DNA of 12,901 bases from a virus. The notes beneath the pieces were generated by a model. It saw nothing but the letters and a program-made list of their open reading frames with translations. It was not told the origin of the DNA and made no database searches. Of this stretch, positions 1 through 12,901 are shown piece after piece. Position 1 is the first letter of the stretch, and every line of letters begins with the position of its first letter. The DNA is taken from IMG/VR virus record IMGVR_UViG_3300045988_120558, positions 1 through 12,901 of that record; one strand, given 5' to 3'. The position numbers and the translations under genes are program-made.

Positions 1-117
1 AAACTTGGCAAGACAAACCTATGAATAAATTGTTAAGATTTCCCCAATCTGTTCATATTTCGTTCATATTTCGTTCATAATTGCAAAACTGGCATGATTC
101 TTGCTAGGTAACTATAA
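1..117. repeat. Left inverted terminal repeat (ITR) of a linear protein-primed genome
   Basis: Bases 1-117 are the reverse complement of 12785-12901, with 116/117 identical (mismatch at 84 C vs 12818 A). Homology stops abruptly at 118. The genome end starts 5'-AAA, the reiterated terminal base needed for sliding-back initiation as in phi29 (AAAGTA). Confidence 0.95.
51..79. repeat. 11-bp direct tandem repeat inside the left ITR (GTTCATATTTC x2 plus partial GTTCATA)
   Basis: Read directly: gttcatatttc (51-61), gttcatatttc (62-72), gttcata (73-79). The period is about one helical turn. It is mirrored in the right ITR at 12823-12851. Confidence 0.9.
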
Positions 118-123
118 CATTAA

Positions 124-156
124 ATTGTCTGACAATATAGCATAAAGTCTGACAAT
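124..156. promoter_or_regulatory. Two candidate operator sites sharing the core GTCTGACAAT, 20 bp apart, just upstream of the early promoter
   Basis: ATTGTC-T-GACAAT (124-136) is a perfect 6-1-6 palindrome. The second copy AAAGTC-T-GACAAT (144-156) is imperfect. The 10-bp core is repeated at 127-136 and 147-156, and the sites lie immediately 5' of the -35 at 164. Confidence 0.5.
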
Positions 157-163
157 TATTCTG

Positions 164-192
164 TTGACATCTTAGTTCATATGGACTATAAT
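164..192 (+). promoter_or_regulatory. Early promoter, perfect sigmaA/sigma70 consensus
   Basis: TTGACA (164-169), exactly 17 nt spacer, TATAAT (187-192). It lies just inside the left ITR and upstream of the first gene. Confidence 0.8.
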
Positions 193-238
193 AGACCTAA
201 CAAATAAATCAAGCACGGCCATAAGGCAGGAGGGTTAT

Positions 239-400
239 ATGTATACTCTTTATAAGGAGTATAATGGAGCAAGATACTTTGCTGATGCATATGATGGAAC
301 TGATGATGTTGAGCTTATTAATGCAACAAACGATAAAGAAGCTATTGAGTTATTTAAAGAGATTATGAGATTAAAAGAGGATGAACAGGAGGAACAGTAA
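239..400 (+). CDS. Small, highly acidic early protein (53 aa), unknown function; not in the ORF track
   Basis: ATG 239 is preceded by AGGAGGG (228-234). My translation is MYTLYKEYNGARYFADAYDGTDDVELINATNDKEAIELFKEIMRLKEDEQEEQ. Stop TAA 398-400 abuts the next ATG at 401. I count 15 D/E against 6 K/R. Confidence 0.6.
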   Translation: MYTLYKEYNGARYFADAYDGTDDVELINATNDKEAIELFKEIMRLKEDEQEEQ

Positions 401-775
401 ATGAAATCAAAATACGAAAAACTCAAATATACCAATACTGGGGTAAAAGCCCCGGTAGTGACTCTCATGAAATCCAGTACAGAACTTTGTAGGTCAAACA
501 TGATAGAATTAAACTATCCAGAAGTAACAATCATCATAAGGAGAATTGCACGAAAAACAATGTACAATCGTTCAATGTCTCTAATAAATATTAAAGCAGA
601 TCATTTTATTGCCTCATTTTATGTTCATGATACTATTAACGATGCAAGAGTTGTATGTGAGAATATTTATTTGATCATTAAAAAACCAGAATTAGATTTT
701 CGCATAACAACTATGGAATACAATAGCATTTATGAGTATATGAAGGGAGTAGTATACAATGCCAAAGAATCCTAA
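401..775 (+). CDS. Hypothetical early protein (124 aa); by position possibly an SSB or dsDNA-binding replication accessory protein
   Basis: ORF-track ORF. AGGAGGA (387-393) lies 7 nt upstream of ATG 401. It overlaps the next gene by 17 nt. I recognise no motif. Confidence 0.6.
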   Translation: MKSKYEKLKYTNTGVKAPVVTLMKSSTELCRSNMIELNYPEVTIIIRRIARKTMYNRSMSLINIKADHFIASFYVHDTINDARVVCENIYLIIKKPELDFRITTMEYNSIYEYMKGVVYNAKES

Positions 776-1379
776 AATCCCAACCACGTCAAAGGGTTTG
801 AACATCAACCCGAACATGCTTACTACGCTTGAGGCTCTACAGCTCCGCAGGCAGCTTGCAAAACGTCTGAATCAGCGTATGCGCAGATTAAAAGCAAAAG
901 GTTTTGATTCAGAGGTTGGAGGAGCGTACGCAGACTACCAGGACTTGCTTGTAAGATTTTTCCCGGGTAGGTCATCTATTCCGGAAAATCTGGAAAATGA
1001 AAAATACAAGGGATTACCGCGAACTCAGGTGAAAGCCATCCAAAAGATATTGAAAAAAAAGAGCAGCACTGTTCAGGGCTGGCATGAGATCATAGATAAA
1101 CGCCAAAAAACCCTTAGCACAGAATATGGGATCAACTTTAAATCTAAAGAGGAAATGAAGTTATTTTTTAAGTCTGAAGTATGGTCATGGATGCAACGAT
1201 TTTATGACAGTAAACAGACAATGAGAATAATCAGTCATAAACTGGATGATTCTACGGTTTCTGAGATCATAAAAGATCTGGAAAAATTCCGGGAGAGAAC
1301 TGATCCAGATGCAGCTGATACGATAGCAAAACAACTAGGTTTTTCTGGCGAAGCAGAAGCTTTGAAATATAGACCATAG
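759..1379 (+). CDS. Candidate terminal protein (206 aa)
   Basis: It sits immediately upstream of the protein-primed DNA polymerase, the phi29 gene3-gene2 synteny. The N-terminus is strongly basic and helical (LQLRRQLAKRLNQRMRRLKAKG). SD GGGAG (745-749) precedes ATG 759. The assignment rests on position and composition only. Confidence 0.5.
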   Translation: MPKNPKIPTTSKGLNINPNMLTTLEALQLRRQLAKRLNQRMRRLKAKGFDSEVGGAYADYQDLLVRFFPGRSSIPENLENEKYKGLPRTQVKAIQKILKKKSSTVQGWHEIIDKRQKTLSTEYGINFKSKEEMKLFFKSEVWSWMQRFYDSKQTMRIISHKLDDSTVSEIIKDLEKFRERTDPDAADTIAKQLGFSGEAEALKYRP

Positions 1380-1394
1380 CAAGGGGGGTAAAGT

Positions 1395-3518
1395 ATGGTA
1401 GTCGCAGGATATCCAGTTATTTATTTTAAAAACTATGATTATATGCGACTATTCAATGGTGATTTTATCCGGAGATCCAATGCAGGTCATTATCTAGGTG
1501 TCTATGAAAAAATAATAACTGTTGATACAGAAACTTTTGTCTATCTTAACAAAAACATTGGCTTTGTCACGGATTGGACAATCACGATAGAGGATGATTG
1601 TTGTATTTACGGCAACCATGTTTCTGATCTGATTGATACGATCGACAGGATTTGCACAACTTTACATGCTGACGATAGCCACCTTGTAAGATTTTTCATT
1701 CATAACTTTCCATATGACTATGTTTTTCTTCGTAACCATTTTTTCCAAAAGTGGGGGAATCCTGATAAATCACTGGCTGCTAAGACACATAAATATATTT
1801 TTATGAAATGGACAGGACAAGGCATTGAGTTCCGTGATAGTCTCATCTTGACACAAAGATCACTTGAGAAGCTTTGTAAAGACATGGGAACAACTGAAAA
1901 AGCTGTCGGAACATGGGACTATAAGAAATTCCGAACGCCAGCAAGTCCACGTACAGCAAAAGAAATAGCCTATGTCTGTACGGATACAATCAGTCTATGC
2001 AAGGCATTACGCAAATACATAGATCAGCGAGGATTTAACGTGGCGAACTGTCCGCTGACCAATACGGGCTTTATCCGGACGAACGCCCGCAGGAGAGCAA
2101 GAAAAGACAAGAAATGGAAAAAGCAATTTGAGAAAATGGCTCTGACGTTGGAGCAATACGATCAAATGCTTGACTGCTATCATGGTGGCTATACGCATGC
2201 TAATAGGTATTATGTGAATCAATTAATAAAAGGGACTGTTGAATGTTATGATTTTGCAAGCTCATACATAGCCTGGATGTGCTATTGTAAGTTTCCTATG
2301 TCGAATTTTTGTTATACAAATAATATAACATTAAAAGACATTATGGATTTGAAAGATGATTATGCTTTTTCTGGTTATATCAGATTAAAGAATCTGAGAC
2401 TGAAAAAAGACTGTCCTATGCCCCCGCTGTCTTTTTCAAAAGCAAAAGTTTGTGTTTTTCCAGAAGCCAAAAGCAAAAAAGAACAGTTTCATGATAATCT
2501 GGATAACGGAAAGATCGTCAACGCTGATCTTGTCATCTATCCATTTACGGATCCAGATTTAGAAGTAATCCTGTCAAGCTATGATTATGAATGGGCTGAC
2601 GTGTCAAAAGTAATGAGAGCTACAAAAGACTACTTGCCGGAGTGGTTTACTGATTACTTGATGGAATTGTTTTTTAAAAAATGCACCCTTAAATGTTTGG
2701 ACGAAGCAAACTACATGATATCAAAGGGGGAGCTAAATGGCATGTACGGCATGACGGTTCAGAGAATCATTCAAATCTTATGTACAGAGCTTATGGAGTC
2801 AGGAGAGTGGGAAGCAAAAGAACCAGAGGACAGGGAAAAAGAGCTTGAAAAGTTCTATCGGAACAAGAACAACTTCATGCCCTACCAGTGGGGGGTATGG
2901 ATCACAGCGTATGCACAAGCTTATCTGTTCCAGCTGGGTTTCTGCTGCCGGAGGTGGTTATATTCAGACACAGATTCAGTAAAGGGAACAGACTGGGATC
3001 ATGATAAACTGGATGAGTTTAATCAGTCAATCGTTGAAATGTCACAAAAAAGAAACATTGGAGTAGTTGATTATAATGGAAAAACTTTCCGGTTGGGAAT
3101 TGCTGAGTTTGACGGGATCTATTCTGAGTTTATAACAATGGGAAGCAAGCGTTATTGCTACCGATTGAAAAAGGATGCATCCTTGCATCTGACGGTCGCA
3201 GGAGTTCCAAAAGAGGGTATTTACTGTTTGAATGACGATATAACAAATTTTCGAAAAGGGTTTATTTTCAAAAATGATTTGACATTCCGCAGGAACTACC
3301 GCAGAGCGAATGATTGGCAGGATCCAAAATGGAAGATGAAAACAGAGTATCTTTTCCATGACGGAATCAATGAAATGAATATTGATGGATGCAAGATTGA
3401 ATATGGTTGTGCCATCCGGTTAACAGATACAGAATATGAATTAGATCATACAATCCCATACGATAAAGAAACAGGATTACCCTTGCCGTTTGAAATAGAA
3501 GATACCGTGTACGGATAA
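1395..3518 (+). CDS. Family B DNA polymerase, protein-primed (phi29 gp2-like), 707 aa
   Basis: Motifs read from the translation: ExoI ITVDTETF (D44/E46), ExoII HNFPYDYVFL, ExoIII YVCTDTISL. Pol motif A is YDFASSYIAWM (Dx2SLYP type), motif B KGELNGMYGM (Kx3NSxYG), motif C YSDTDS (residues 523-528, nt 2961-2978), and KxY is GSKRYCY. SD AAGGGGGG (1381-1388). Confidence 0.95.
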   Translation: MVVAGYPVIYFKNYDYMRLFNGDFIRRSNAGHYLGVYEKIITVDTETFVYLNKNIGFVTDWTITIEDDCCIYGNHVSDLIDTIDRICTTLHADDSHLVRFFIHNFPYDYVFLRNHFFQKWGNPDKSLAAKTHKYIFMKWTGQGIEFRDSLILTQRSLEKLCKDMGTTEKAVGTWDYKKFRTPASPRTAKEIAYVCTDTISLCKALRKYIDQRGFNVANCPLTNTGFIRTNARRRARKDKKWKKQFEKMALTLEQYDQMLDCYHGGYTHANRYYVNQLIKGTVECYDFASSYIAWMCYCKFPMSNFCYTNNITLKDIMDLKDDYAFSGYIRLKNLRLKKDCPMPPLSFSKAKVCVFPEAKSKKEQFHDNLDNGKIVNADLVIYPFTDPDLEVILSSYDYEWADVSKVMRATKDYLPEWFTDYLMELFFKKCTLKCLDEANYMISKGELNGMYGMTVQRIIQILCTELMESGEWEAKEPEDREKELEKFYRNKNNFMPYQWGVWITAYAQAYLFQLGFCCRRWLYSDTDSVKGTDWDHDKLDEFNQSIVEMSQKRNIGVVDYNGKTFRLGIAEFDGIYSEFITMGSKRYCYRLKKDASLHLTVAGVPKEGIYCLNDDITNFRKGFIFKNDLTFRRNYRRANDWQDPKWKMKTEYLFHDGINEMNIDGCKIEYGCAIRLTDTEYELDHTIPYDKETGLPLPFEIEDTVYG

Positions 3519-3520
3519 AA

Positions 3521-3529
3521 TGTTATAAA
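3521..3529 (+). promoter_or_regulatory. Possible extended -10 promoter (TGtTATAAA) in the gap after the polymerase gene
   Basis: TGTTATAAA at 3521-3529 (TGn plus 5/6 of the -10). There is no convincing -35. It lies in the 68-nt intergenic gap upstream of the small-ORF cluster. Confidence 0.25.
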
Positions 3530-3586
3530 TCTGTAATAGTTTTTTAACATAAATAAGTTACAATATAGACAGGAGGTGAAAAAACC

Positions 3587-3700
3587 ATGAAAAAATTCTG
3601 GAAAGAAAATAAAGAAGATATTGAAACGCTTTTCTGGACTTGTGTTACTTTTGCTTGCATGTTTGCAAGCTGTCAAGTATGGTTACTGTTAGTGGATTAA
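3587..3700 (+). CDS. 37-aa single-pass membrane peptide; not in the ORF track
   Basis: AGGAGGTG (3571-3578) precedes ATG 3587. The product is MKKFWKENKEDIETLFWTCVTFACMFASCQVWLLLVD: a charged N-terminus followed by a ~22-residue hydrophobic stretch. Stop TAA 3698-3700. Confidence 0.55.
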   Translation: MKKFWKENKEDIETLFWTCVTFACMFASCQVWLLLVD

Positions 3701-3733
3701 AGGGGGGGTAAATCATGAAAAAAAGTTGTTGAA

Positions 3734-3937
3734 GTGGCTGAGATTAAAAAGAAAATTGAAAAATTAATAAACTCAGCAAATGAAGATTTTAAGAAAGGTT
3801 TAAATAATTTATATGACTTGAAAATCTATGTGGCAAAATTAATGTTTTCCTATTTAGAAGATCTAATATGTGAACCAGAAACATGGGAAGAAGATATGTT
3901 TCGTCTGAATGAGTGGATGGATTCATTAAGACATTAA
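3734..3937 (+). CDS. Hypothetical 67-aa helical protein; start unresolved (GTG 3734, or ATG 3715 if the A7 run is one base too long)
   Basis: The ORF-track ORF begins at GTG and has no SD of its own. The strong SD AGGGGGGG (3701-3708) serves ATG 3715, which is in another frame and stops after 5 codons. See the finding at 3701-3740. Confidence 0.55.
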   Translation: MAEIKKKIEKLINSANEDFKKGLNNLYDLKIYVAKLMFSYLEDLICEPETWEEDMFRLNEWMDSLRH

Positions 3938-3950
3938 GGAGGTGAGAAAA

Positions 3951-4091
3951 TTGATTGACATGTCGGAGATCTATGAAACATTGCGAACAAGCAGCCTGCG
4001 AAGAGTAACTTACGAAGATGATGAAATTAGTATTGTAGCTTATAAGGTTGGAAAAATCATTAGAATTGATGTAAGGGAGGTAATAAGATGA
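3951..4091 (+). CDS. Hypothetical 46-aa protein; not in the ORF track
   Basis: AAGGAGGTG (3936-3944) lies 6 nt before TTG 3951, with an alternative ATG at 3960. The product is (M)IDMSEIYETLRTSSLRRVTYEDDEISIVAYKVGKIIRIDVREVIR. Stop TGA 4089-4091 overlaps the next ATG (ATGA). Confidence 0.5.
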   Translation: MIDMSEIYETLRTSSLRRVTYEDDEISIVAYKVGKIIRIDVREVIR

Positions 4092-4258
4092 ATACAATAT
4101 ACAAATTGTATGATGCGTTACTTACTATAAAAGAGTATTGTGTATCAAACAATACATGCAAGGATTGTCCACTCATTGATAGTGATGATTGTTGCATTTT
4201 TACAACAGATAGAGCACCATGTGATTGGAAACCGGTTAAGCCAACAATAATTAAATAA
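4088..4258 (+). CDS. Cysteine-rich 56-aa protein (possible metal-binding); not in the ORF track
   Basis: AAGGGAGG (4073-4080) lies 7 nt before ATG 4088. The product is MNTIYKLYDALLTIKEYCVSNNTCKDCPLIDSDDCCIFTTDRAPCDWKPVKPTIIK. Six Cys are spaced C-x5-C-x2-C-x7-CC-x8-C. Confidence 0.55.
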   Translation: MNTIYKLYDALLTIKEYCVSNNTCKDCPLIDSDDCCIFTTDRAPCDWKPVKPTIIK

Positions 4259-4273
4259 AGGAGATAAACTAAT

Positions 4274-4573
4274 ATGTTAAAATCAAACGTAAAAATTACT
4301 TGCAAACCTTATTCTGGTACCTCAAATACAAAAGCTTTTATTGATTTGACAGTGGATGACACACTGGTAATTAAAGGGCTGACGTTGGTTGAGGGAAAAA
4401 AAGGTCTTTTCCTGTCATTCCCGAGCAAAAAGGGAAAAGACAAAAAATACTATAATTCAATATATTCACTCGATAAAGAATGGAAACAGCTTTTGCAGGA
4501 TGCCTGCATCAAAAAATACAACGAGTGCAATCAGACTTCACAGTCTGCATCCTCCGGAGGTGGATTTCAATAA
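4274..4573 (+). CDS. spoVG: SpoVG-family nucleic-acid-binding protein (99 aa)
   Basis: By eye it aligns along its length with B. subtilis SpoVG. AFIDLTVDDTLVIKGLTLVEGKKGLFLSFPSKK...LLQDACIKKY matches [33 protein letters not shown]...IQDAVLTEY, and the length is the same (~97-99 aa). SD AAGGAG (4258-4263). Stop TAA overlaps the ATPase ATG (TAATG). Confidence 0.8.
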   Translation: MLKSNVKITCKPYSGTSNTKAFIDLTVDDTLVIKGLTLVEGKKGLFLSFPSKKGKDKKYYNSIYSLDKEWKQLLQDACIKKYNECNQTSQSASSGGGFQ

Positions 4574-5619
4574 TGAACATCTACGATAGAAATGGTTGGC
4601 TGGACTTTCCAAAGATCATCAAGATTGCCGATAAAAATAAGATTAACTTCATTTTCATCATTGGTGCACGTAGAACCGGAAAAACATATGGAATTTTCCA
4701 ACACTTCGTTAATGATGTTTTTTCCAAAAATGAGAAGATCATCTACATGAGACGTACAAAAGAGCAGCTAAAAAAAGTTTTTATTCCGGAGTTTGATCCA
4801 TGGCTGGACATAAACAAAGATATGAACAGGTTTTTTCATTTTGAAAAGCCCAGAGGTGAATACGGACGTATTAAGATTGTAGAGCAGGTTGAGGAAGAGG
4901 AAGTATATAGAGGTGAGGCATTCTGTCTCACCTCAATGCATAACAACCGTGGATTCTCTGGATCTGATTTCTCTGAGGGGTTTTATGATGAGTTCATCCC
5001 GGAGAAGATCGCTAAGTCAATCAGTGGGGAGGATGATGCTTTTCTGAATGCTGTTGAGACCATATCGGCAAACAGAGAATTGCAAGGAAAGAAGCCATTC
5101 CGCTGGTGGCTTGCTTCCAACTCAAACACATTAGATAATGCAATTGTGCAAGCTTTTGGATTGCTGCCAATATTGGAACGAATGAAAAAGAACAAGCAGG
5201 AGTTTTCCATGCTAAAAGAGAGAGGAATCATCTTGCTTTTGATTAACGATTCCCCGATTTCAGAAAAGAAGAAAGATACTGCGTTGTATCGTGCTTTATC
5301 ATGCGATACTGACTTTGCAAAGATGGCTTTATCGAATGAATTTGCATATGATGATGTCTCGGCTGTCAGATCAGAGGACATTAGGCAATACAAGCTAATT
5401 TGTGTGATCGGAAAAGTGGCCATTTACGAACACAAGTCAAAAGCACACTTGTATGTTTCTGATCATATTTCTGGCACTTGTAAAAATGTTTTTAAAGACA
5501 GCCGGCATGGAAAAGATCAGTTTAGATGCTTTTATAGCTGGATTGACAGCTATCGTCTGACAAATCGAATCAGTTACCAGAATATTTCTGTAAAATTTTA
5601 TATTGACAAACTATTTTGA
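4573..5619 (+). CDS. DNA encapsidation (packaging) ATPase, phi29 gp16-like, 348 aa
   Basis: Walker A is FIIGARRTGKTYG (phi29 VIGARGIGKSYA). IIYMRRTKEQL matches phi29 FIYVRRYKPEL. Walker B is GFYDEFIPEK (phi29 IVFDEFIREK), and LASNSN matches CLSNAV. I place the start at ATG 4573 (SD GGAGGTGG 4556-4563) rather than the track's 4480, which would overlap the SpoVG-like gene by 94 nt. Confidence 0.9.
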   Translation: MNIYDRNGWLDFPKIIKIADKNKINFIFIIGARRTGKTYGIFQHFVNDVFSKNEKIIYMRRTKEQLKKVFIPEFDPWLDINKDMNRFFHFEKPRGEYGRIKIVEQVEEEEVYRGEAFCLTSMHNNRGFSGSDFSEGFYDEFIPEKIAKSISGEDDAFLNAVETISANRELQGKKPFRWWLASNSNTLDNAIVQAFGLLPILERMKKNKQEFSMLKERGIILLLINDSPISEKKKDTALYRALSCDTDFAKMALSNEFAYDDVSAVRSEDIRQYKLICVIGKVAIYEHKSKAHLYVSDHISGTCKNVFKDSRHGKDQFRCFYSWIDSYRLTNRISYQNISVKFYIDKLF

Positions 5620-5631
5620 AACAAGTATATT
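5603..5631 (+). promoter_or_regulatory. Late (or RNA-gene) promoter, near-consensus sigmaA type
   Basis: TTGACA (5603-5608), exactly 17 nt spacer, TATATT (5626-5631). It overlaps the ATPase stop codon. The predicted start (~5637-5640) coincides with the first base of the long stem below. A GTCTGACAA copy sits upstream at 5554-5562. Confidence 0.65.
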
Positions 5632-5636
5632 AGAGC

Positions 5637-5716
5637 TAGGTCAGAGTGGCTACATCGACCGCCGGAAGCGGATTGCCGTGGGATGATTACCCAGAAGCTC
5701 TGACCTATTTAATTTT
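5637..5716 (+). ncRNA. Candidate structured RNA (three-way junction): pRNA-like small RNA or structured leader/attenuator of the late operon
   Basis: A closing helix pairs 5637-5646 (taggtcagag) with 5698-5707 (ctctgaccta), 10 Watson-Crick bp. Hairpin A is ccgc(5659-5662)/gcgg(5668-5671) with loop cggaa. Hairpin B is tggg(5679-5682)/ccca(5690-5693) with a 7-nt loop atgatta. The U-rich tail tatttaatttta follows. The element is locally much more GC-rich than its surroundings and contains no ORF. Confidence 0.4.
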
Positions 5717-5742
5717 ACTTCCGGCAGAAAAGGAGAGATAAA

Positions 5743-6078
5743 ATGAAAGTAGATCAGATTTTAGAACTTGGTAAACTTGGATTCTCAAAAAATGAGATCA
5801 TTGGGATTCTGAACACTCAGAACATGACTGGGCTTAATCAGATCACAAGCCCACAGGCTACAGAACAGATTCAGAATCTGGGGCAGCAGGTTACAAATAC
5901 TCCACTGAATCTGACAGCACAGACAGGACAGGATGCAACCAATACAGCCCTGCTTACAGCCATCAATACGTTGACTGCTACGTTACAGGCTGGGAACCTG
6001 TCAGCATCTGGAAAAAGTGTAAATAGCCCACGTACTTCTGAGAATGTGGCAGAAGATCTCATGAAGCTTATGAATTAA
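5743..6078 (+). CDS. Putative scaffolding protein (111 aa)
   Basis: It lies immediately upstream of the capsid gene, as phi29 gp7 does, and is of similar size. It is Q/T/N/L-rich and looks helical. SD AAGGAGAG (5730-5737). The call is positional only. Confidence 0.4.
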   Translation: MKVDQILELGKLGFSKNEIIGILNTQNMTGLNQITSPQATEQIQNLGQQVTNTPLNLTAQTGQDATNTALLTAINTLTATLQAGNLSASGKSVNSPRTSENVAEDLMKLMN

Positions 6079-6093
6079 GGAGGTGTAAATAAT

Positions 6094-7290
6094 ATGGCGA
6101 ACAGTTTAGTTGTGCAGGACGCCTATCCTATCATTAATGAATTGTACAAAATGGCTACTGGTCGTGAAAATCTTAAAGCAATAGACACAAGCTCTTTTGT
6201 TGCAGTTGGTGAAACCATGTTGCGGACAGGTGTAGAGCCAACACTGAAAGCACTCAGTCAGTGGTGTGGAAAAACGTATTTTGAAATGGAAAAATACAGA
6301 TCTGGTGTGTTCCGCTCAATCATTGAGGATAATGAACGATGGGGAGCTATCATACGTGAGATCATCACATTGCCAAACGATGCGGAGGCATCGCAGGATT
6401 GGAATACAGATCTGAACGAAAACCAGCTTGCCAACGGTCAGTCTGTAGACATGTACAAGATTAATGCTCCAAAAGTGGTGGAGTTGAAATTCTACGGAAG
6501 CAAGGTTTTACAGTCTCATCTTACACGTTTTCGGGATCAGCTGGCACTTGCTTTTTCCAATGAAGCAGAGTTTCTGATGTTTGTAAGTAGCTATATGACA
6601 GCTTATTACAATGACATTGAATCCAGAAATGAAGCAAAACGCAGACTGACGGTGCTTAACTTCATGGCAGGCATTTCCTCCATTGGAACAAATGAAGTGG
6701 ATCTGGTAAAAGCTTACAATACAGAGTATGGAACAGAACTCACACGTAAGCAGCTTTTAAGTCCTGAACATCATAAAGATTTCATGGCTTTTGTAGTATC
6801 AAGAGTTAAGAAAGATTCAAAGAAGATGCAGGACAGAACCACAAAGTATCATATGAATCTGACTGGAAAGGACATCTTGCGATTCACAAGACCAGAGAAT
6901 CAGAAGTTGCTTATGTACACTGATTTTTGGATTGACAGCGAAACGCAGGTACTTCCGGAGGTATTTAATGATAAATATTTGAAAATTGGTGACATGGAGC
7001 TTGTAAACGGCTGGCAGGAGTTCGACAGCCCGGCTATCAATATCACACCGAACATCATTGATGCTGACGGAGTTTCAAAGACAGCCACTACAGCTGTAAG
7101 CCTGCCATATGTACTCGGTTTGCTTTACGATCGTAGAGCTATGGGCGTAAATAATCAATGGATGTACTCAGCGACTACACCATTCAATGCAGCTGGTGGC
7201 TACTACAACATCTATGACCATTACCGTTTTAATGCATGGAATAATTTTACGCACAATGCAATTCTTTACGTTCTGGGGGAGGGTGTATAA
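6094..7290 (+). CDS. Major capsid protein (398 aa)
   Basis: This is the largest head-region ORF. It carries a very strong SD, AAGGAGGTG, and follows the scaffold-like gene. Size and position match phi29-like gp8-type capsid proteins. I cannot verify any specific motif by eye. Confidence 0.65.
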   Translation: MANSLVVQDAYPIINELYKMATGRENLKAIDTSSFVAVGETMLRTGVEPTLKALSQWCGKTYFEMEKYRSGVFRSIIEDNERWGAIIREIITLPNDAEASQDWNTDLNENQLANGQSVDMYKINAPKVVELKFYGSKVLQSHLTRFRDQLALAFSNEAEFLMFVSSYMTAYYNDIESRNEAKRRLTVLNFMAGISSIGTNEVDLVKAYNTEYGTELTRKQLLSPEHHKDFMAFVVSRVKKDSKKMQDRTTKYHMNLTGKDILRFTRPENQKLLMYTDFWIDSETQVLPEVFNDKYLKIGDMELVNGWQEFDSPAINITPNIIDADGVSKTATTAVSLPYVLGLLYDRRAMGVNNQWMYSATTPFNAAGGYYNIYDHYRFNAWNNFTHNAILYVLGEGV

Positions 7291-7601
7291 TGATTTATTT
7301 TGACGTAACAGTTTCTGAACCTACTATAATTCCGTTAGATGATACAGTAGGCATAAAAAGGATTGTGATTTTAAATAATGGGGATACTAACTCTGCTACC
7401 GGCTTAATGTTAACTGATAATAGTCTTGTTTTATTGGCAAAAACAGAGCTTGTTGATTTTACTTTTCCCGAAACCCCGTACGGATATCCTGCCCCATCAT
7501 GTTTCTTTATTTCTGTTATTGGTAATAGTACAGCTCTTGTTATGATAGAAACAAGCCCATTTGTAAATGTCAACTATTTTGAAAAAAGGGAGGTTAAATA
7601 G
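7290..7601 (+). CDS. Hypothetical structural protein (103 aa; occupies the head-fibre/decoration position)
   Basis: The start is coupled (TAATG) to the capsid gene, with SD GGGGGAGGG upstream. The composition looks beta-rich. I recognise no motif. Confidence 0.5.
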   Translation: MIYFDVTVSEPTIIPLDDTVGIKRIVILNNGDTNSATGLMLTDNSLVLLAKTELVDFTFPETPYGYPAPSCFFISVIGNSTALVMIETSPFVNVNYFEKREVK

Positions 7602-7606
7602 AAATA

Positions 7607-7828
7607 ATGGATACTTTTCTAACTGTTCTGGGAAACTATGCTTTTCCGATCGTATGCTGTTGTGTTATGGCCTACTTTGTAAAATACATGTACGATCAGA
7701 CCAATCAGAGAGTTGATAAACTCAACGAAGAACATAAAAACGAAGTTGATACACTTTCTGATGTTATCAAAAACAACACACTTGCTATTGAAAAAATGAA
7801 CTCGTTAATTGAACACTTAGAAAAATAG
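7607..7828 (+). CDS. Holin, BhlA/UviB-like (73 aa)
   Basis: An N-terminal transmembrane segment (FLTVLGNYAFPIVCCCVMAYFV) is followed by a charged coiled-coil tail (DKLNEEHKNEVDTL...IEKMNSLIEHLEK). This is the same architecture, with local matches (NEV, IEK), as SPbeta BhlA. It sits directly upstream of the endolysin. Confidence 0.7.
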   Translation: MDTFLTVLGNYAFPIVCCCVMAYFVKYMYDQTNQRVDKLNEEHKNEVDTLSDVIKNNTLAIEKMNSLIEHLEK

Positions 7829-7838
7829 GGATGATAAC

Positions 7839-8489
7839 ATGACAGCGAACGAACTTGTTGAAAATGCAAAGGAATTATTTGGAGTTAGATATGTGTGGGG
7901 TGGTTCAACCCCCACACAGGGACTTGATTGTTCCGGATTGCTTTATTGGATACAAAAGATGGCAGGATCAGAAGTTGGTAGATTGACTGCATCCAGTTAT
8001 TCCAAAATTGGAACAAAGATTCCAATTGGGCAGCAAAAAGTAGGTGATTTTCTATTTTTTGGAACTCCAGTTACTCACTGCGCCATTTTTATTGGCAATG
8101 GCTATATGATTGAAAGCAGGGGAGGCAGAAAAAACACACCCTACAACCCTGGTATTGGGGTGGTCAAAAGCCTTGTCACTCGTAGGTCTGACTTATCCTG
8201 CATCCGCAGAGTATGGGATGAAAAAAGCCCATCTTATGAAATAGGTAGAACCTATACTACTGTCGTAGATCACTTGCATGTACGCTATTCAGTATGGGGG
8301 CAGATCAAAGAGTATGCACAGTTAACACGGGACGGAATGAAACATGCCTATCCTGATGGATGCTTGAAAAAAGGAACTGCGGTCACGATAAAAGATATCA
8401 AAAAGGATGAGACCGGAGCAACGTGGGTACGGATTCCATCTGGCTGGATATGTGCAATTACAGCAAAAGGTGAGGTATATGTAAAATGA
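7839..8489 (+). CDS. Endolysin: NlpC/P60 (C40) endopeptidase with a C-terminal SH3b-like wall-binding domain (216 aa)
   Basis: The N-terminal signature is YVWGGSTPTQGLDCSGLLYW (catalytic Cys31), followed by GDFLFFG...THCAIFIGNGYMIES (His80). The C-terminal ~80 aa (GTAVTIKDIKKDETGATWVRIPSGWI) look SH3b-like. Confidence 0.9.
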   Translation: MTANELVENAKELFGVRYVWGGSTPTQGLDCSGLLYWIQKMAGSEVGRLTASSYSKIGTKIPIGQQKVGDFLFFGTPVTHCAIFIGNGYMIESRGGRKNTPYNPGIGVVKSLVTRRSDLSCIRRVWDEKSPSYEIGRTYTTVVDHLHVRYSVWGQIKEYAQLTRDGMKHAYPDGCLKKGTAVTIKDIKKDETGATWVRIPSGWICAITAKGEVYVK

Positions 8490-9829
8490 CAGATATTATT
8501 TTATTTCATTTTTCCAAACGAAAAAACAGTACCAAAAGACCAACAGGACAGGGGACAACCGTCCCCTGTCTTTTAAAATCAAACACTACTTTTCAGAATC
8601 CAGTGTTTAAATTAAAATTATCATTAGATAATGCATTGCAATACAACTATTTACAATGGGCCGACCATTACTATTTTATCAATTCGACGGTGTCATTAAA
8701 TAATGACATGGTTGAGATCTCAGCGAGTGAGGATATGTTAGCTACCTACCGGACAGAGATCAGCAACTATACATGCTTTATTGAGCGTTCTGCTAAGCAG
8801 AATACGCTTGCAAATGATTCCATGTATATCCCTACAAATGAATGGGTAAGTCAGCCCACGATCGTAGGGCAGCCGATAAATACATTTGTGAATGGATATG
8901 CTAGAAACTATCTGCTGCGGACTATTTCAGTAGAGGGGATAAGCACTTATTATGTCACAGGAAGCCAATTAGATGATCTAATGGAATTTATGTACACTTA
9001 TGGATCCATCCCGGATGTGATTGAGTCAGCACTTACACGTTTGCTTTTTAATCCGTTTCAATACATTGTTGACTTGAAATGGCTGCCATTCCGATTAAGC
9101 GTATTCCTTAATATTGCCGATAATATCAAACTTGGCTACTGGGACAGCAATGTAACTGCTGCATTAATTAATGATGCAACATGCACTTTTTCCTACGATT
9201 TAAGCCTTGGTAATCCCTTATATGCTGATAGTGATTTTAGATTTTACAATCCTGCTTTTTCAAAGTATAGTGTGAAGCTTCCATTTGTAGGGGTTATTCC
9301 TGTAAATCCAACAAAGACACATAAGGGTCAGTTAAAAGCCACTTATAACTTTGATGCTGTTTCTGGCATGGCTGACGTTTGGCTTACTTCCGGATCAGAT
9401 GAATATGCACACTTTCAATGTCAGCTTGCCGTCCCAATACAAATTGGATATGCTACAACAAACATTGGCCAGCTTACGACAAGCTTGATAGATACAGCCA
9501 CAAGTGCTGTCACAATGAATCCAATTAAGGCAACCACAAGCATTGTAGATGCATTTCAAAGTGTTACAGCCCCAGAGCCCAACATGGTAGGTACAGTTGG
9601 CAATATTTCATCAATACTCAATAACATGGATGCAAACAGTATCTGCTATGCCTGCACAAGCATAGATCCAGATGGCACAAGTGAGGGTTATATAGATGGT
9701 ACTGTCCGCAGTATTTCTGCACTGAGTGGTTTTGTAAAATGCAGAAATGCATCTATACAGATTGCAGGATTCGAGGGAGATCAAGAACAGGTGAACAGCT
9801 ACCTAAATAATGGATTTTATTTTGAATAA
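8486..9829 (+). CDS. Tail knob / major tail protein (phi29 gp9-like), 447 aa
   Basis: It occupies the gp9 position immediately upstream of the connector. The N-terminal pattern (NPVFKLKL...NYLQWADHYYFINSTVSLNNDMVEISASEDMLATYRTEI) resembles the conserved gp9 N-domain (SYIMFQN...WFYAFVTELEFKN...FEIDVLQTW). The start overlaps the endolysin stop (ATGA). Confidence 0.6.
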   Translation: MTDIILFHFSKRKNSTKRPTGQGTTVPCLLKSNTTFQNPVFKLKLSLDNALQYNYLQWADHYYFINSTVSLNNDMVEISASEDMLATYRTEISNYTCFIERSAKQNTLANDSMYIPTNEWVSQPTIVGQPINTFVNGYARNYLLRTISVEGISTYYVTGSQLDDLMEFMYTYGSIPDVIESALTRLLFNPFQYIVDLKWLPFRLSVFLNIADNIKLGYWDSNVTAALINDATCTFSYDLSLGNPLYADSDFRFYNPAFSKYSVKLPFVGVIPVNPTKTHKGQLKATYNFDAVSGMADVWLTSGSDEYAHFQCQLAVPIQIGYATTNIGQLTTSLIDTATSAVTMNPIKATTSIVDAFQSVTAPEPNMVGTVGNISSILNNMDANSICYACTSIDPDGTSEGYIDGTVRSISALSGFVKCRNASIQIAGFEGDQEQVNSYLNNGFYFE

Positions 9830-9845
9830 AAGGAGGAAAGAAAAC

Positions 9846-10766
9846 ATGTGGACACCGGTTAATTTTGACAAGATCAACATCTGCACAAATTATTTCCAAC
9901 CATCCGGAATCAAAGTCAACAGCTTATATACTGATACATTTGATAGGATGCTTTACGAGAGGGTATGTTCTATTCTTGACATCACATACAATGGAAGCAT
10001 TGATATTGACTATTTCAAATATTGCCTGCTTTTTGGGGGGTATATTTGCATCACAAAGACAGATCTTTATGGATTGATCGCACAGTATCCAACGCTGACA
10101 GGCTACAATATTTACTTTAAACCAACGACAGCAAGCATACATACGTATGCAAGCAACGCTGTAATTGACATGGAAGACATGGAGATCGGAAAAGACTGTT
10201 CTGTCATCTATCTCAGACCAACTTTCTGCGGAATTGGAGATATCATCGGGTTTTACAGCTACAAACTGGCACTTGTAGCATCTGCCCTTGATATGAATGT
10301 GTTTAATTCAAAACTTGCTTTTCTGATAGCTGCGAAAAACAAAGCAGCAGCTCAGACGCTGAAAAAAATTTATGAAAGTATACAGGCTGGTAACCCAGTT
10401 GAGGCTTTTGATGTATCCATAAAAACAGAAGACAGACAGGGAAGCAAGCAGGATGCGTGGGAGACATTCAACAAAGATTTGAAGCAGAACTTCATTACAC
10501 CGGAGCTGATTGAAGTGTTCGAGAAACTTTTGGATCAGTTCGACACGGAAGTAGGAATTCCCTCTGTCGGATCCGATAAAAAAGAACGTCTGAATGTGCT
10601 TGAGACAAGCAAAAATGATGCAGAATCAGTAACACGGCTTACGACATGGCTTGAGACAATGCAAGCAGGGGTTGACATGACAAACAGACTTTATCCGGAG
10701 ATGAATCTGTCAATCAAGATCAGAAGCTATGAAACTGCGGAGGTGAAAACTTATGGGACTTTATAA
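9846..10766 (+). CDS. Head-tail connector / upper collar (portal), phi29 gp10-like, 306 aa
   Basis: SDKKERLNVLETSKNDAESVT matches phi29 gp10 [27 protein letters not shown]...LALVASALDMNVFNSKLAFLIAAKN matches VVIYNND...[25 protein letters not shown]. The size matches (309 aa in phi29). I place the start at ATG 9846 (AGGAGG 9831-9836) rather than the track's 9810. Confidence 0.85.
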   Translation: MWTPVNFDKINICTNYFQPSGIKVNSLYTDTFDRMLYERVCSILDITYNGSIDIDYFKYCLLFGGYICITKTDLYGLIAQYPTLTGYNIYFKPTTASIHTYASNAVIDMEDMEIGKDCSVIYLRPTFCGIGDIIGFYSYKLALVASALDMNVFNSKLAFLIAAKNKAAAQTLKKIYESIQAGNPVEAFDVSIKTEDRQGSKQDAWETFNKDLKQNFITPELIEVFEKLLDQFDTEVGIPSVGSDKKERLNVLETSKNDAESVTRLTTWLETMQAGVDMTNRLYPEMNLSIKIRSYETAEVKTYGTL

Positions 10767-11442
10767 GATAACGATAGCAGGGCTTTACGAATGGAATAAT
10801 ACTCTGTTTGACAAGATGGAATTCCCAGAATCAGCAGACAAGCAGAATTTTATTGATTGCTTGCTTCTATCCTATGGAGATTGCGAACCACTTTATCCTG
10901 ACTGGGAGTTTATGCATGATAGTGCTATTCCTGCATGGAGTAGAAAATGGAAAAGTAGCATTGACAAGGTTTATAAAGTGTTAGACTTACTTAACTATGA
11001 ACCAATTGAAAACTATGACCGCTATGAAGAATGGACAGATAGCCCCGATCTGACACGGACAAGTCAAAGCTCCGGGCAGGATATAAACAGGGCAGAAGCA
11101 GGACAGGGAACCACTACGACCAACTCTGGGGCAGATACAGCTACCAATGAAGTAAGTGCTTTTAATGATGCAAGCTACAGCCCGAACGAAAAAACGACAA
11201 CGGAGTATGGTGGCAGTACAACAGTGCAAAGTTATGGAGAAAACAAAAATACGTTTGAATACGGAAAAGGTGAAACAAGCAGAGAGACAGGACAGAATAA
11301 GCACTCTGGGCGTATTCATGGCAACATTGGGGTTACTACCTCTCAGCAGATGATCCAGTCAGAGCTTGAGTTACGGATACAAAGCTTTATTGATTACTGT
11401 ACTGGGCTATTTGCACAGGATCTGCTTTTATTAATTTATTAA
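10753..11442 (+). CDS. Lower collar / head-tail adaptor candidate (229 aa)
   Basis: It follows the connector, as phi29 gp11 does. SD GGAGGTG (10739-10745). It has a central low-complexity S/T/G/N-rich segment and a conserved-looking C-terminus (HGNIGVTTSQQMIQSELELR). The call is mainly positional. Confidence 0.5.
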   Translation: MGLYKITIAGLYEWNNTLFDKMEFPESADKQNFIDCLLLSYGDCEPLYPDWEFMHDSAIPAWSRKWKSSIDKVYKVLDLLNYEPIENYDRYEEWTDSPDLTRTSQSSGQDINRAEAGQGTTTTNSGADTATNEVSAFNDASYSPNEKTTTEYGGSTTVQSYGENKNTFEYGKGETSRETGQNKHSGRIHGNIGVTTSQQMIQSELELRIQSFIDYCTGLFAQDLLLLIY

Positions 11443-11455
11443 GGAGGAATAAATT

Positions 11456-12712
11456 ATGTTTTTCAGATACCCACATAGTGGATCACACGAAATGAACTTA
11501 GACTGGCTGCTTAAAGTTGGCAAACAGGCTGACAAAGACCACGAAGAGTGGACACACATTAAAGACACTGCTCAGACAATGATTGATGATGCAATCCAGA
11601 AAAGCCTGGATGATGGAGAGATCGGAAAAGTAGTAAATGATGCCACTACAAAAGTAATCACAGAACAGATTGACCCATTAAAAGAACAGGTTGGAACAAA
11701 TAGAACTGAGATCGCAAAGTTACAAAAAAGAGAAGGACTTTTTGACCATTCTGGGAAAACCATCATCATCGGAGATAGCTACACCGTTGGTTATACACCA
11801 GATGGGAATATAACACCGTGGACTACTAACTTTATCAAGTACACAGGGCTTGAGGATGTCACAATCTCCGCAAATGGGGGGGCTTCTTTCTCAACAGCTA
11901 ATAATTCATTCCTTATGCTTTTAAATGATGTACCCCCTTCTAATGAGGTCAAACAGATCCTTGTTGTAGGTGGATTTAATGAGTTTGGAAGCTACTCAGA
12001 AATTGAAAATGCAATCAATGCTTTTATGGGAGTGGCAGAAGTGAGATTTCCGAATGCAAAAGTATTTTCCGCTATGGTAGCATGGTCAGTAGATCGGACG
12101 GATGACCCAACTGTACAGAATAGGCTCAAGACTGCAAAATCCGTTTATAACAGTCAGCGTAAAAATTGGAGGTATTTGACAGGCTCAGACTATATTTTGC
12201 ATGCCGACGGCTTTCTGGGTTCTGATGGCTTCCATCCAAACACAACAGGACAGGAGAGACTTGCAAGCTATCTTGCTACCGCTGTTGAAACGGGATCATG
12301 CAGTCCATCATTTTATGAAGTTATCGCCAACTTTGAAGCTGGCGACTTTACAGCTACACTAGGTTCAAGCTGGACTTTTATAAGCTCATACAATGAGAAC
12401 ACAAGCACTCTGATCTGGAGCAACTATGTTTGTTTCCCAAACAGCGGAACACTTACATGTGATGGCACTGAATACCGTTTGGGGCGGATTTTCTCAACTT
12501 CTTTTATTGGAGATCACAATGGCTACACATGCTATCCAACAACCGTGATCGTTAAGTCTGTCAGCGATTTCTTTCACATCCCTGCACAGCTTAATTTCCG
12601 AGGCCGACATATTTATTTAAGCTTATACGATATTTCAGATGATAAGCACAATTACCGAACTTTGACAGAGGTTACACAGGTGCAGATTCATAGAGGTTCT
12701 ATTACCATGTAA
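11456..12712 (+). CDS. Tail appendage / receptor-binding protein with a central SGNH (GDSL) esterase domain, 418 aa
   Basis: SGNH blocks are readable: block I IIIGDSYTVGY (Ser108), block II SANGGASF, block III VVGGFNEF, block V SDGFHPNTTG (D-x-x-H). The N-terminal ~95 aa are coiled-coil-like, and the C-terminal ~130 aa form a separate beta-looking domain. It is the last gene, in the phi29 gp12 position. SD AAGGAGGA. Confidence 0.75.
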   Translation: MFFRYPHSGSHEMNLDWLLKVGKQADKDHEEWTHIKDTAQTMIDDAIQKSLDDGEIGKVVNDATTKVITEQIDPLKEQVGTNRTEIAKLQKREGLFDHSGKTIIIGDSYTVGYTPDGNITPWTTNFIKYTGLEDVTISANGGASFSTANNSFLMLLNDVPPSNEVKQILVVGGFNEFGSYSEIENAINAFMGVAEVRFPNAKVFSAMVAWSVDRTDDPTVQNRLKTAKSVYNSQRKNWRYLTGSDYILHADGFLGSDGFHPNTTGQERLASYLATAVETGSCSPSFYEVIANFEAGDFTATLGSSWTFISSYNENTSTLIWSNYVCFPNSGTLTCDGTEYRLGRIFSTSFIGDHNGYTCYPTTVIVKSVSDFFHIPAQLNFRGRHIYLSLYDISDDKHNYRTLTEVTQVQIHRGSITM

Positions 12713-12725
12713 ATATAAAATATGA

Positions 12726-12754
12726 TAGCCCAGCGGTATGCTGGGCTATTTTTT
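12726..12754 (+). terminator. Rho-independent terminator of the late operon
   Basis: A 9-bp stem pairs tagcccagc (12726-12734) with gctgggcta (12740-12748). The loop is ggtat, followed by a T6 run (12749-12754). It begins 14 nt after the last stop codon. Confidence 0.85.
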
Positions 12755-12784
12755 ATACTTCTACCATGAGCTTATTCAACAGCT

Positions 12785-12901
12785 TTATAGTTACCTAGCA
12801 AGAATCATGCCAGTTTTACAATTATGAACGAAATATGAACGAAATATGAACAGATTGGGGAAATCTTAACAATTTATTCATAGGTTTGTCTTGCCAAGTT
12901 T
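12785..12901. repeat. Right inverted terminal repeat
   Basis: It is the reverse complement of 1-117 (116/117). It contains the mirrored 11-bp tandem repeat at 12823-12851. Confidence 0.95.

Follow-up and report, generated by a model that had tools for sequence, protein, structure and literature searches.

Layout of the element

The DNA examined here is a stretch of 12,901 nucleotides (nt), positions 1 to 12,901 of the IMG/VR virus record IMGVR_UViG_3300045988_120558, referred to below as the window. Its subject is a small structured element that lies between the gene for a packaging ATPase and a scaffold-like gene. An earlier note, made from the letters of the sequence, had pointed to a promoter-driven RNA of about 70 nt at this place and had suggested either an analogue of the packaging RNA (pRNA) of phage phi29 or a switch in the leader of the late genes. 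The features of the locus are as follows.

About 4570-5619, + strand: gene for a gp16-family packaging ATPase (PF05894; match to phi29 gp16, chain 7jqq_A, E = 5.6e-7)
5603-5631, + strand: sigma-70-type promoter TTGACA-17-TATATT (TTGACA at 5603-5608, TATATT at 5626-5631), scoring 11/12
5637-5647, + strand: 5' strand of helix P1, pairing with 5697-5707
5648-5650, + strand: 5' strand of helix P2a (GGC), pairing with 5675-5677
5651-5658, + strand: 5'-side internal loop of the P2 arm (UACAUCGA), of which 5654-5657 (AUCG) pairs with the P3 loop
5659-5671, + strand: hairpin P2b, CCGC-CGGAA-GCGG, with stem 5659-5662/5668-5671 and an apical pentaloop of the type YNGAA
5675-5677, + strand: 3' strand of helix P2a (GCC), pairing with 5648-5650
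5679-5693, + strand: hairpin P3, UGGG-AUGAUUA-CCCA, with stem 5679-5682/5690-5693; 5684-5687 (UGAU) pairs with the internal loop
5694-5696, + strand: junction strand J3/1 (GAA), the last two A's of which are invariant in clades 1-4
5697-5707, + strand: 3' strand of helix P1, pairing with 5637-5647
5708-5716, + strand: U-rich tract UUUAAUUUU adjoining P1; it may be a leaky terminator and is interrupted and weak in the window
5718-5725, + strand: downstream segment CUUCCGGC, complementary to 5661-5668 (5' strand and loop of P2b)
5731-5745, + strand: Shine-Dalgarno sequence AGGAG and start codon of the scaffold-like gene
5743-6078, + strand: scaffold-like gene

Helix P1 comprises 11 base pairs (bp), a perfect helix of 5637-5646 with 5698-5707 to which U5647-G5697 adds one more. 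The promoter, this outer helix and both hairpins lie where the earlier note had placed them, and 5661-5668 (GCCGGAAG) is, as it had said, the exact complement of 5718-5725 (CTTCCGGC). Its description of the U-tract as interrupted and weak in the window also holds. Helix P2a (5648-5650/5675-5677) and the covarying loop-loop pairing had escaped it. The GC content of the element is 56% compared with 38.6% for the genome, in agreement with the local GC richness noticed earlier. The 123-nt gap between the ATPase and scaffold-like genes is the sole truly non-coding stretch inside the genome, as had been supposed, because the 215-nt gap that follows the polymerase gene holds an open reading frame (ORF) of 39 residues. 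No tRNA or transfer-messenger RNA was found in the window with ARAGORN.

The promoter overlaps the stop codon of the ATPase gene (5617-5619), and its -35 and -10 boxes are kept in all relatives. Promoter-like sites scoring at least 11/12 occur only twice in the window, at 164-192 near the left end and at 5603-5631 before the morphogenesis genes. From the spacing of the boxes we infer a transcript 5' end at 5637-5639, on the first bases of P1. The predicted start falls on these bases in every lineage, which bears out the position given earlier. The element would be the 5'-terminal domain, about 71 nt long, of the transcript from this strong promoter ahead of the scaffold, capsid, tail and connector genes. 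In one relative (L046, about 4110-4170) the promoter region is tandemly duplicated, with 27 bp (TTATATTGACAAATTATTCAAATAATC) present twice, so that two -35 boxes precede the element.

Comparative evidence for the fold

The window sequence by itself is weak evidence for a structure, for which the comparison of relatives provides the real support. In the window, two perfect inverted repeats of 10 bp or more enclose a loop of 30-70 nt, compared with 0.8 expected from shuffled sequences, and the folding z-score is about -3.1 on both strands. When 43 distinct copies, drawn from the window's clade and a single sister clade, were aligned, 98.5% of the cells were paired and eight pairs were doubly changed. 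A further alignment, likewise of 43 distinct copies, covered four clades, in which the identity of the ATPase falls to 41%. Here, 97.7% of the cells were paired, as opposed to 32-45% when the partners were slid against each other, and 18 of the 25 pairs showed changes on both sides. The covariation score of this alignment was 0.571 compared with 0.220 in shuffles, and neither the observed score nor the percentage of paired cells was reached by any of 500 shuffles. RNAalifold, which was supplied with no structure, arrived at the same three-way junction, and 15 of its 20 pairs were compensated. The helices, for which the earlier note had proposed a test of covariation, do covary in relatives.

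The changes are spread over all helices, and intergenic variation is concentrated at compensatory positions. Compensatory changes were found in 10 of the 11 P1 pairs and in all three pairs of P2a, for example from GGC/GCC to AGC/GCU and GCG/CGC, and P2b was 100% paired with two pairs compensated. Ten of the 11 lineages have C(G/A)GAA or (C/U)CGAA as the P2b loop, and clade 5 has AGYC. The pairing of the internal loop with the P3 loop (5654-5657/5684-5687, alignment columns 19-22/53-56) was 98.3% paired with two pairs compensated, and occurs as AUCG/UGAU, ACCA/UGGU, GCCA/UGGC and AACCA/UGGUU. More distant lineages carry GCUA/UAGC, GUCG/CGAC, AAAAGGAA/UUCCUUUU, GGC/GCC and UCC/GGA, and additional complementary loop variants were seen in L379, L398-L402 and AD70P3. 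Because G-U pairs are frequent, and because the covariance model scores the + strand at 98.9 bits but the - strand at 15.8 bits, selection acts on the RNA of the + strand. A function at the level of DNA was rejected on the same two grounds. Thus, the RNA structure is confirmed as real and conserved.

Sampling and distribution

A protein query with the ATPase yielded 57 IMG/VR relatives, and a sequence pattern together with further protein queries added metagenome and genome-collection copies as well as more distant clades. The pattern scans of metagenomes and genomes gave 183 loci, of which a sequence filter removed 121 as chance matches, mostly from GC-rich genomes. Among 185,579 species genomes, 63 pattern matches were obtained and a single one (L333) was kept by the filter, with the reservation that the pattern is strict and that distant versions could escape it. 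L333 sits on a 12.6-kb contig binned into a metagenome-assembled genome of Odoribacter and carries the element sequence of clade 3a; the contig is phage-like rather than chromosomal. Copies upstream of related genes in cellular genomes were accordingly not found in this strict scan.

In a third clade, whose P1 sequence is completely different, model R1 located the element immediately behind the ATPase gene. In clade 4 the R1 match reached 50-56 bits with filters off and was missed at default filters, and weaker but significant model matches were obtained in MT835998 (L399) and MT836263 (L401). Models R1 and R2 do not detect the versions in AD70P3, L398, L400 and L402, and these were assigned by synteny, promoter, fold and loop complementarity only. 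The lineages recognised by layout are MT835901 (L398), MT836155 (L400), AD70P3 and AD70P2 (L397 and L403) and the clade of MT836587 (clade 5; L402 and 80 IMG/VR genomes). AD70P2 and AD70P3 are cultured Amedibacillus phages of the Guelinviridae and have the same arrangement as the window. All of these lineages share the consensus promoter, a helix closing the 5' and 3' ends, and an arm made up of an internal loop on the 5' side and a capped hairpin. The loop of their second hairpin complements the internal loop, with the pairs AAAAGGAA/UUCCUUUU, GUCG/CGAC and UCC/GGA. Clade 5 showed compensatory changes in each of P1, P2b and P3; since the AD70 rows were misaligned in a MAFFT alignment of clade 5 with AD70, the clade-5 rows alone were used for this result.

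The capsid proteins of lineages that keep the structure are about 25-38% identical to that of the window. Across relatives the element measures 65-75 nt, P1 varies from 6 to 13 bp with no conserved bulge, and the three junction strands have 0, 0-2 and 2-6 nt. A scan of the whole window against Rfam 15 with E values up to 10 gave no match at the element. The element represents a new RNA family, of which neither Rfam nor the literature searched has a record, and is kept by hundreds of phi29-like gut phages with genomes of 12-15 kb. Hammerhead- and twister-type ribozymes were considered and rejected, as the junction strands are too short and no Rfam match was found, and CsrA-type GGA sites were rejected because only the GGA of the apical loop is conserved.

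The 3' flank of the element

A U-rich tract follows P1 in most lineages, with U8 in clade 2a, U6 in clade 3b, and UUUUUG after a G+C-rich P1 in L399. A terminator scan of the window made no call at P1 and its U-tract, the enclosed loop of 49 nt being too large. Clade 5 has no U-tract after P1. Instead, a tRNA-Gln(UUG) begins 4-5 nt after P1 and before the scaffold-like gene in 80 of 80 clade-5 genomes (L405-L484); in L402 it occupies 5131-5206. The tRNA maturation pathway with RNase P is universal, and because the tRNA adjoins P1, its processing would free a junction RNA of about 70 nt from the mRNA in this clade. A further tRNA, tRNA-Pro(CGG), was found in L401 at 9066-9142.

These flanks bear on the most modest explanation of the element, in which it is a terminator for the early and ATPase transcripts combined with a 5' stem that shields the late mRNA from 5' exonucleases, with no specific partner. 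Such stems at the 5' terminus stabilise mRNA in Firmicutes, the transcript is predicted to begin with P1, behind which U's follow, and the reverse strand of the window folds equally well. A plain stem would suffice for this purpose, yet three inner helices, the loop-loop pairing and the pentaloop are kept by compensatory change, and the G-U pairs and model scores point to selection on the + strand RNA only. In clade 5, moreover, the stem would be cut from the mRNA and the U-tract is missing. A passive role of this kind was therefore judged highly improbable.

The linker downstream of P1 contains a second type of feature. The 8-bp complement of the window (5718-5725/5661-5668) was equalled in 0-2 of 300 shuffled linkers. 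The corresponding segment in clade 2 targets the 3' strand of P2a and the 5' strand of P3 and exists as three covarying variants, GCCACGG/CCGUGGC, GUCACGGG/CCCGUGAC and GUCAUGGGAU/AUCCCAUGAC. Clade 3a has a 16-bp pairing that extends from the P2b loop to P3, the segment of clade 3b targets the 3' strand of P2b and is accompanied by a repeat of the P1 3' strand, and that of L399 targets the 5' strand and loop of P2b, as in the window. In clades 1, 2a-c, 3a, 3b and L399 the complementarity was reached by 0-6 of 300 shuffles on at least one of two measures. No downstream complementary segment was found in clade 4, L401 and AD70P3. The segments that exist leave 17-29 nt between their end and the start codon and do not reach into the core ribosome-binding site. 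The folded and remodelled states are thermodynamically close, near iso-energetic.

The alternative pairing suspected in the earlier note thus appears to be under selection in several clades. The gating of the Shine-Dalgarno sequence that the note had attached to it is plausible in the window's own clade, in which CUUCC has two possible partners, the Shine-Dalgarno region and the P2b loop, but not elsewhere, as CUUCC complements the Shine-Dalgarno region in that clade only.

The segments lead to the possibility that the late operon is controlled in cis by the element, acting as a leader switch or attenuator. The junction would then serve as a sensor for a protein of the phage or the host or, with lower likelihood, for a metabolite, and its folding would compete with the pairing to the downstream linker. 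In such a switch, P1 and the U-tract would end a fraction of the transcripts and set the timing or level of the late genes from an otherwise constitutive promoter. The significant segments complementary to P2 and P3, their covariation in clade 2, the near iso-energetic states, the alternative partners of CUUCC in the window and the frequent succession of P1 and a U-run are all in favour of this explanation. In common with riboswitches and protein-responsive leaders, the element is located in the 5' leader of an operon, forms a structured domain with a pseudoknot-like tertiary pairing, is followed by lineage-specific pairing segments, and often has a stem and U-run behind it. In contrast to them, it shows no conserved unpaired core nucleotides that would mark a ligand pocket (only the YNGAA loop is widely kept, and it is lost in clade 5), it is confined to one phage group, the only genome-collection match kept being the phage-like L333, and the first base of its transcript is predicted to belong already to P1. 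Clade 4, L401 and AD70P3 have no platform, clade 5 has a tRNA instead, and the platforms that exist lie outside the core ribosome-binding site. Since clade 5 has this tRNA between the element and the genes and lacks the U-tract, translational control or attenuation cannot be the conserved function. A switch is nevertheless a serious candidate, which we consider plausible without regarding it as probable.

Association with the late promoter and operon

The genome around the element is complete and linear, with terminal inverted repeats of 117 bp (1-117 and 12785-12901) that are 99% complementary; the window is therefore a complete, protein-primed genome of 12.9 kb. Short direct repeats (GTTCATATTTC) lie inside these terminal repeats. 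All genes are on the + strand, and those that matter here, apart from the two flanking the element, are the following.

1395-3518, + strand: protein-primed family-B DNA polymerase
6094-7290, + strand: phi29-type major capsid protein (PF25622)
9810-10766, + strand: phi29-type connector (PF05352)

PF05894, PF05352 and PF25622 all scored above their own cut-offs in the window proteins, and tail proteins are also encoded among the morphogenesis genes. The record MT836115, an uncultured phage from human faeces, is 91% identical.

In 11 of 11 lineages the element begins 5-8 nt after the -10 box of a TTGACA-type promoter and precedes the first gene of the morphogenesis operon. This first gene is scaffold-like in most lineages and encodes a small membrane protein in L399 and L401; in L398 the element is located about 950 nt upstream of the capsid gene. 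The ATPase gene, on the other hand, is not a constant neighbour. In clade 4 it is the last gene of a rightward unit, with the element about 6.5 kb away on the other strand, and in L399 it likewise lies elsewhere. The adjacency to the gp16 homologue on which the earlier note had drawn is therefore not conserved.

Rearrangements of whole modules accompany these differences. The late module of clade 4 is inverted relative to the window, and in clade 3 the polymerase module is inverted (L228). In L379 (5675-5706), and in clade 4 generally, a perfect bidirectional terminator hairpin (AAGGCTAGG...CCTAGCCTT) follows the ATPase gene, after which come the convergent late genes.

The constant position at the 5' end of the late transcript, even where the ATPase gene or the early module has moved, is a further point for a leader switch. 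The variation of the first downstream gene between lineages is a point against it, as is the lack of a co-occurring phage protein partner. One protein considered as such a partner has 99 residues and is encoded just upstream of the ATPase gene (4274-4573, + strand), which belongs to the SpoVG family (PF04026, E = 3.4e-17), whose members bind DNA and RNA. SpoVG homologues occur at the same position in clades 1-3 and weakly in L398, but none was found in clade 4, AD70P2/P3 and L399-L401, and SpoVG was rejected as a universal partner. Autoregulation by the scaffold protein, for which P22 provides a precedent, was rejected as well because the first downstream gene is not always a scaffold gene.

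The strictly promoter-proximal location, whatever gene follows, could also indicate an RNA that modifies RNA polymerase in cis, like the put RNA of HK022 or the EAR element of Bacillus. The nascent 5' RNA would then make the polymerase resist pausing, termination and Rho across the 7-kb late operon. A length of about 70 nt with two stem-loops would suit such an RNA, and, as it acts on transcription, the insertion of the tRNA in clade 5 would be compatible with it. A helix that closes the 5' and 3' ends from the first transcribed base onward, complementary loops and a U-tract behind the element would all be superfluous for such an RNA. In addition, the late operon shows no evident internal terminators, and no similarity to any Rfam family was found. 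The '6S' leader of lambda between pR' and tR' and the put RNA resemble the element in that a short structured transcript begins directly behind a strong constitutive promoter and RNA polymerase must pass a possible terminator before it reaches the head and tail genes. Lambda, however, uses the DNA-binding protein Q and a simple terminator, and no recognisable Q-like gene was found in the window; put RNAs have neither a closing helix nor a loop-loop pairing. Modification of the polymerase was therefore considered improbable.

Comparison with phi29 pRNA

The pRNA has so far been known only from Bacillus relatives of phi29 (PMC5066667, PMC11476376, PMC12670572). The Rfam model for it (RF00044, Phage_pRNA) was applied to the window with phi29 as a positive control. 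The control scored 145 bits, and the scan of the window with E values up to 10, which the earlier note had asked for, gave no match. Models R1 and R2 did not match the pRNA of phi29 either. Accordingly, the element is not a demonstrable homologue of pRNA. Within the pRNA family the sequence identity is only about 12% with the structure kept (PMC5066667), and the element, too, strongly keeps its structure and poorly its sequence.

In architecture, the pRNA consensus runs from helix A and helix C through a CE loop on the 5' side only and a 4-bp E hairpin to the D hairpin, with the CE and D loops complementary (PMC5066667), and the element has the same order. Its 5' and 3' ends are joined by a closing helix, a three-way junction follows, one arm has an internal loop on its 5' side and then a capped hairpin of 4-5 bp, and the loop of the second hairpin is Watson-Crick complementary to the internal loop over 3-8 bp, with covariation. 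The length of 65-75 nt is similar to that of the 74-nt prohead-binding domain of pRNA (PMC8104870), and both RNAs have a strong promoter of their own. The genome that carries the element is that of a protein-primed, phi29-like podovirus with a gp16-family ATPase, a gp10-type connector and a phi29-type capsid protein. New pRNAs, all from Bacillus phages, have been accepted on the basis of complementarity between internal loop and hairpin loop and the presence of gp16 and gp10 (PMC12670572). Both the loop complementarity and the two proteins were found here. Differences are apparent in the closing helix, with 6-13 bp in the element as opposed to about 25 bp, and in the junction strands, which are 0/0-2/2-6 nt in the element and 1/3/0 nt in pRNA. 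The element lacks domain II, and it heads the late operon and is co-transcribed with the late genes, whereas the pRNA gene is located at the genome end. The late leader of phi29 itself contains no such element.

Of the pRNA analogue suggested at the outset, the helix order of the Rfam consensus and the covarying loop pairing in the manner of the CE and D loops have thus been recovered, which makes the analogy stronger than the window alone could show, and the match to RF00044 has not. The reading as a pRNA analogue is only slightly more likely than that as a late-leader switch. We tentatively favour the view that the element is a discrete, self-pairing architectural RNA that works like a miniature pRNA, although we would put its likelihood somewhat short of even. 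More specifically, it may be a miniature packaging RNA, the first molecule of the pRNA type outside the Bacillus phi29 group. Cleavage or termination would release it from the 5' part of the late transcript, and its covarying loops would let it assemble hand in hand at the portal vertex, where it would link the gp16-type ATPase to the prohead. This specific form is put forward with reserve, as a proposal that could well be wrong.

The mechanism that we envisage is as follows. The 3' end would arise close behind P1: in most lineages the U-rich tract would act as a leaky terminator, and in clade 5 RNase P would cut at the abutting tRNA. The late genes would be carried by read-through transcripts. 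The freed RNA would self-associate 'hand in hand' through the loop-loop pairing and act at the prohead or the packaging motor, like the 74-nt prohead-binding domain of phi29 pRNA. In several clades the read-through mRNA would also carry the segment that unfolds the junction, and the RNA would then be active only in its short form. Downstream segments that strike different parts of the junction fit such a masking of the whole fold in the long mRNA.

Several observations support a discrete pRNA-like RNA. Besides the shared helix order and the similar size, transcription is predicted to start on the first bases of P1 in all 11 lineages. Loop complementarity of 3-8 bp is kept with at least nine different sequence pairs. 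The U-rich tract and the tRNA represent two different ways to a defined 3' end at the same spot, and in clade 5 the tRNA would cut any link between the element and the mRNA. As in the pRNA family, it is the shape and the self-complementary loops that are conserved and not unpaired core nucleotides. No other non-coding region of the genome could hold a pRNA, and its motor proteins belong to the type that depends on pRNA. With junction strands as short as 0, 0-2 and 2-6 nt, a contact between P2 and P3 within one molecule would be sterically awkward by our reading of the Lescoute-Westhof junction rules.

Other observations weigh against this reading. The element follows the promoter and the late operon and not the ATPase gene, and in 11 of 11 lineages it is the first thing to be transcribed from the late promoter, as would be expected for a cis-acting leader; the complementary segments downstream look like the expression platforms of riboswitches. 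Neither does RF00044 match the window nor do models R1 and R2 match phi29 pRNA. The CCA bulge and the long A-helix that bind gp16 in phi29 are lacking, and P1 has only 6-13 bp. The loop-loop pairing is weak in the window's own clade, with one G-C pair, and could be a plain intramolecular pseudoknot. Finally, the U-tract of the window is interrupted and weak. The transcript ends, the pairing of loops between molecules, oligomers and a binding to the prohead are predictions of this reading, and a dual role is possible.

The pRNA is a well-studied structural RNA, indispensable to one of the strongest molecular motors known and much used in RNA nanotechnology, and the element bears on the question of how the motor docks at the portal in the many other phages with a gp16-type ATPase. 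It provides a covariation-supported candidate of half the size of the minimal pRNA, found throughout an abundant phage group of the human gut. In the phages AD70P2/P3, which can be grown in the laboratory, there is a version that shares the layout but escapes models R1 and R2, and the candidate is directly testable there. If the element is a miniature pRNA, RNA-dependent motors would be a general and probably ancestral property of gp16-type packaging ATPases. If it is a leader switch instead, it would still be a new and unusually well-supported RNA family that controls the late genes of the smallest tailed phages.

Further observations on the genomes

Three features point to a Firmicute as the host, namely sigma-70 promoters of consensus type, strong Shine-Dalgarno sequences and the presence of Amedibacillus phages among the relatives. 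The N-terminal motif ILxLxxxGF of the scaffold-like protein recurs in its homologues from relatives. In AD70P2 (L403, 5938-6207) and in some clade-3 phages (L225) the scaffold-like genes contain short tandem coding repeats, (AAAAAAGAAGAACAA)n and (CAGAAC)n. A phi29-type single-stranded DNA-binding protein (PF17427) is encoded just upstream of the ATPase gene in AD70P3, L399 and L400 and near the left genome end in L401.

The 39-residue ORF in the 215-nt gap after the polymerase gene (3587-3706, + strand) has a strong Shine-Dalgarno sequence, and its product is a hydrophobic peptide (MKKFWKENKEDIETLFWTCVTFACMFASCQVWLLLVD), possibly a small membrane protein. At the other end of the genome, after the last gene and just inward of the right terminal repeat, a strong bidirectional terminator-like hairpin of 12 bp followed by a T-run was found at 12724-12750.

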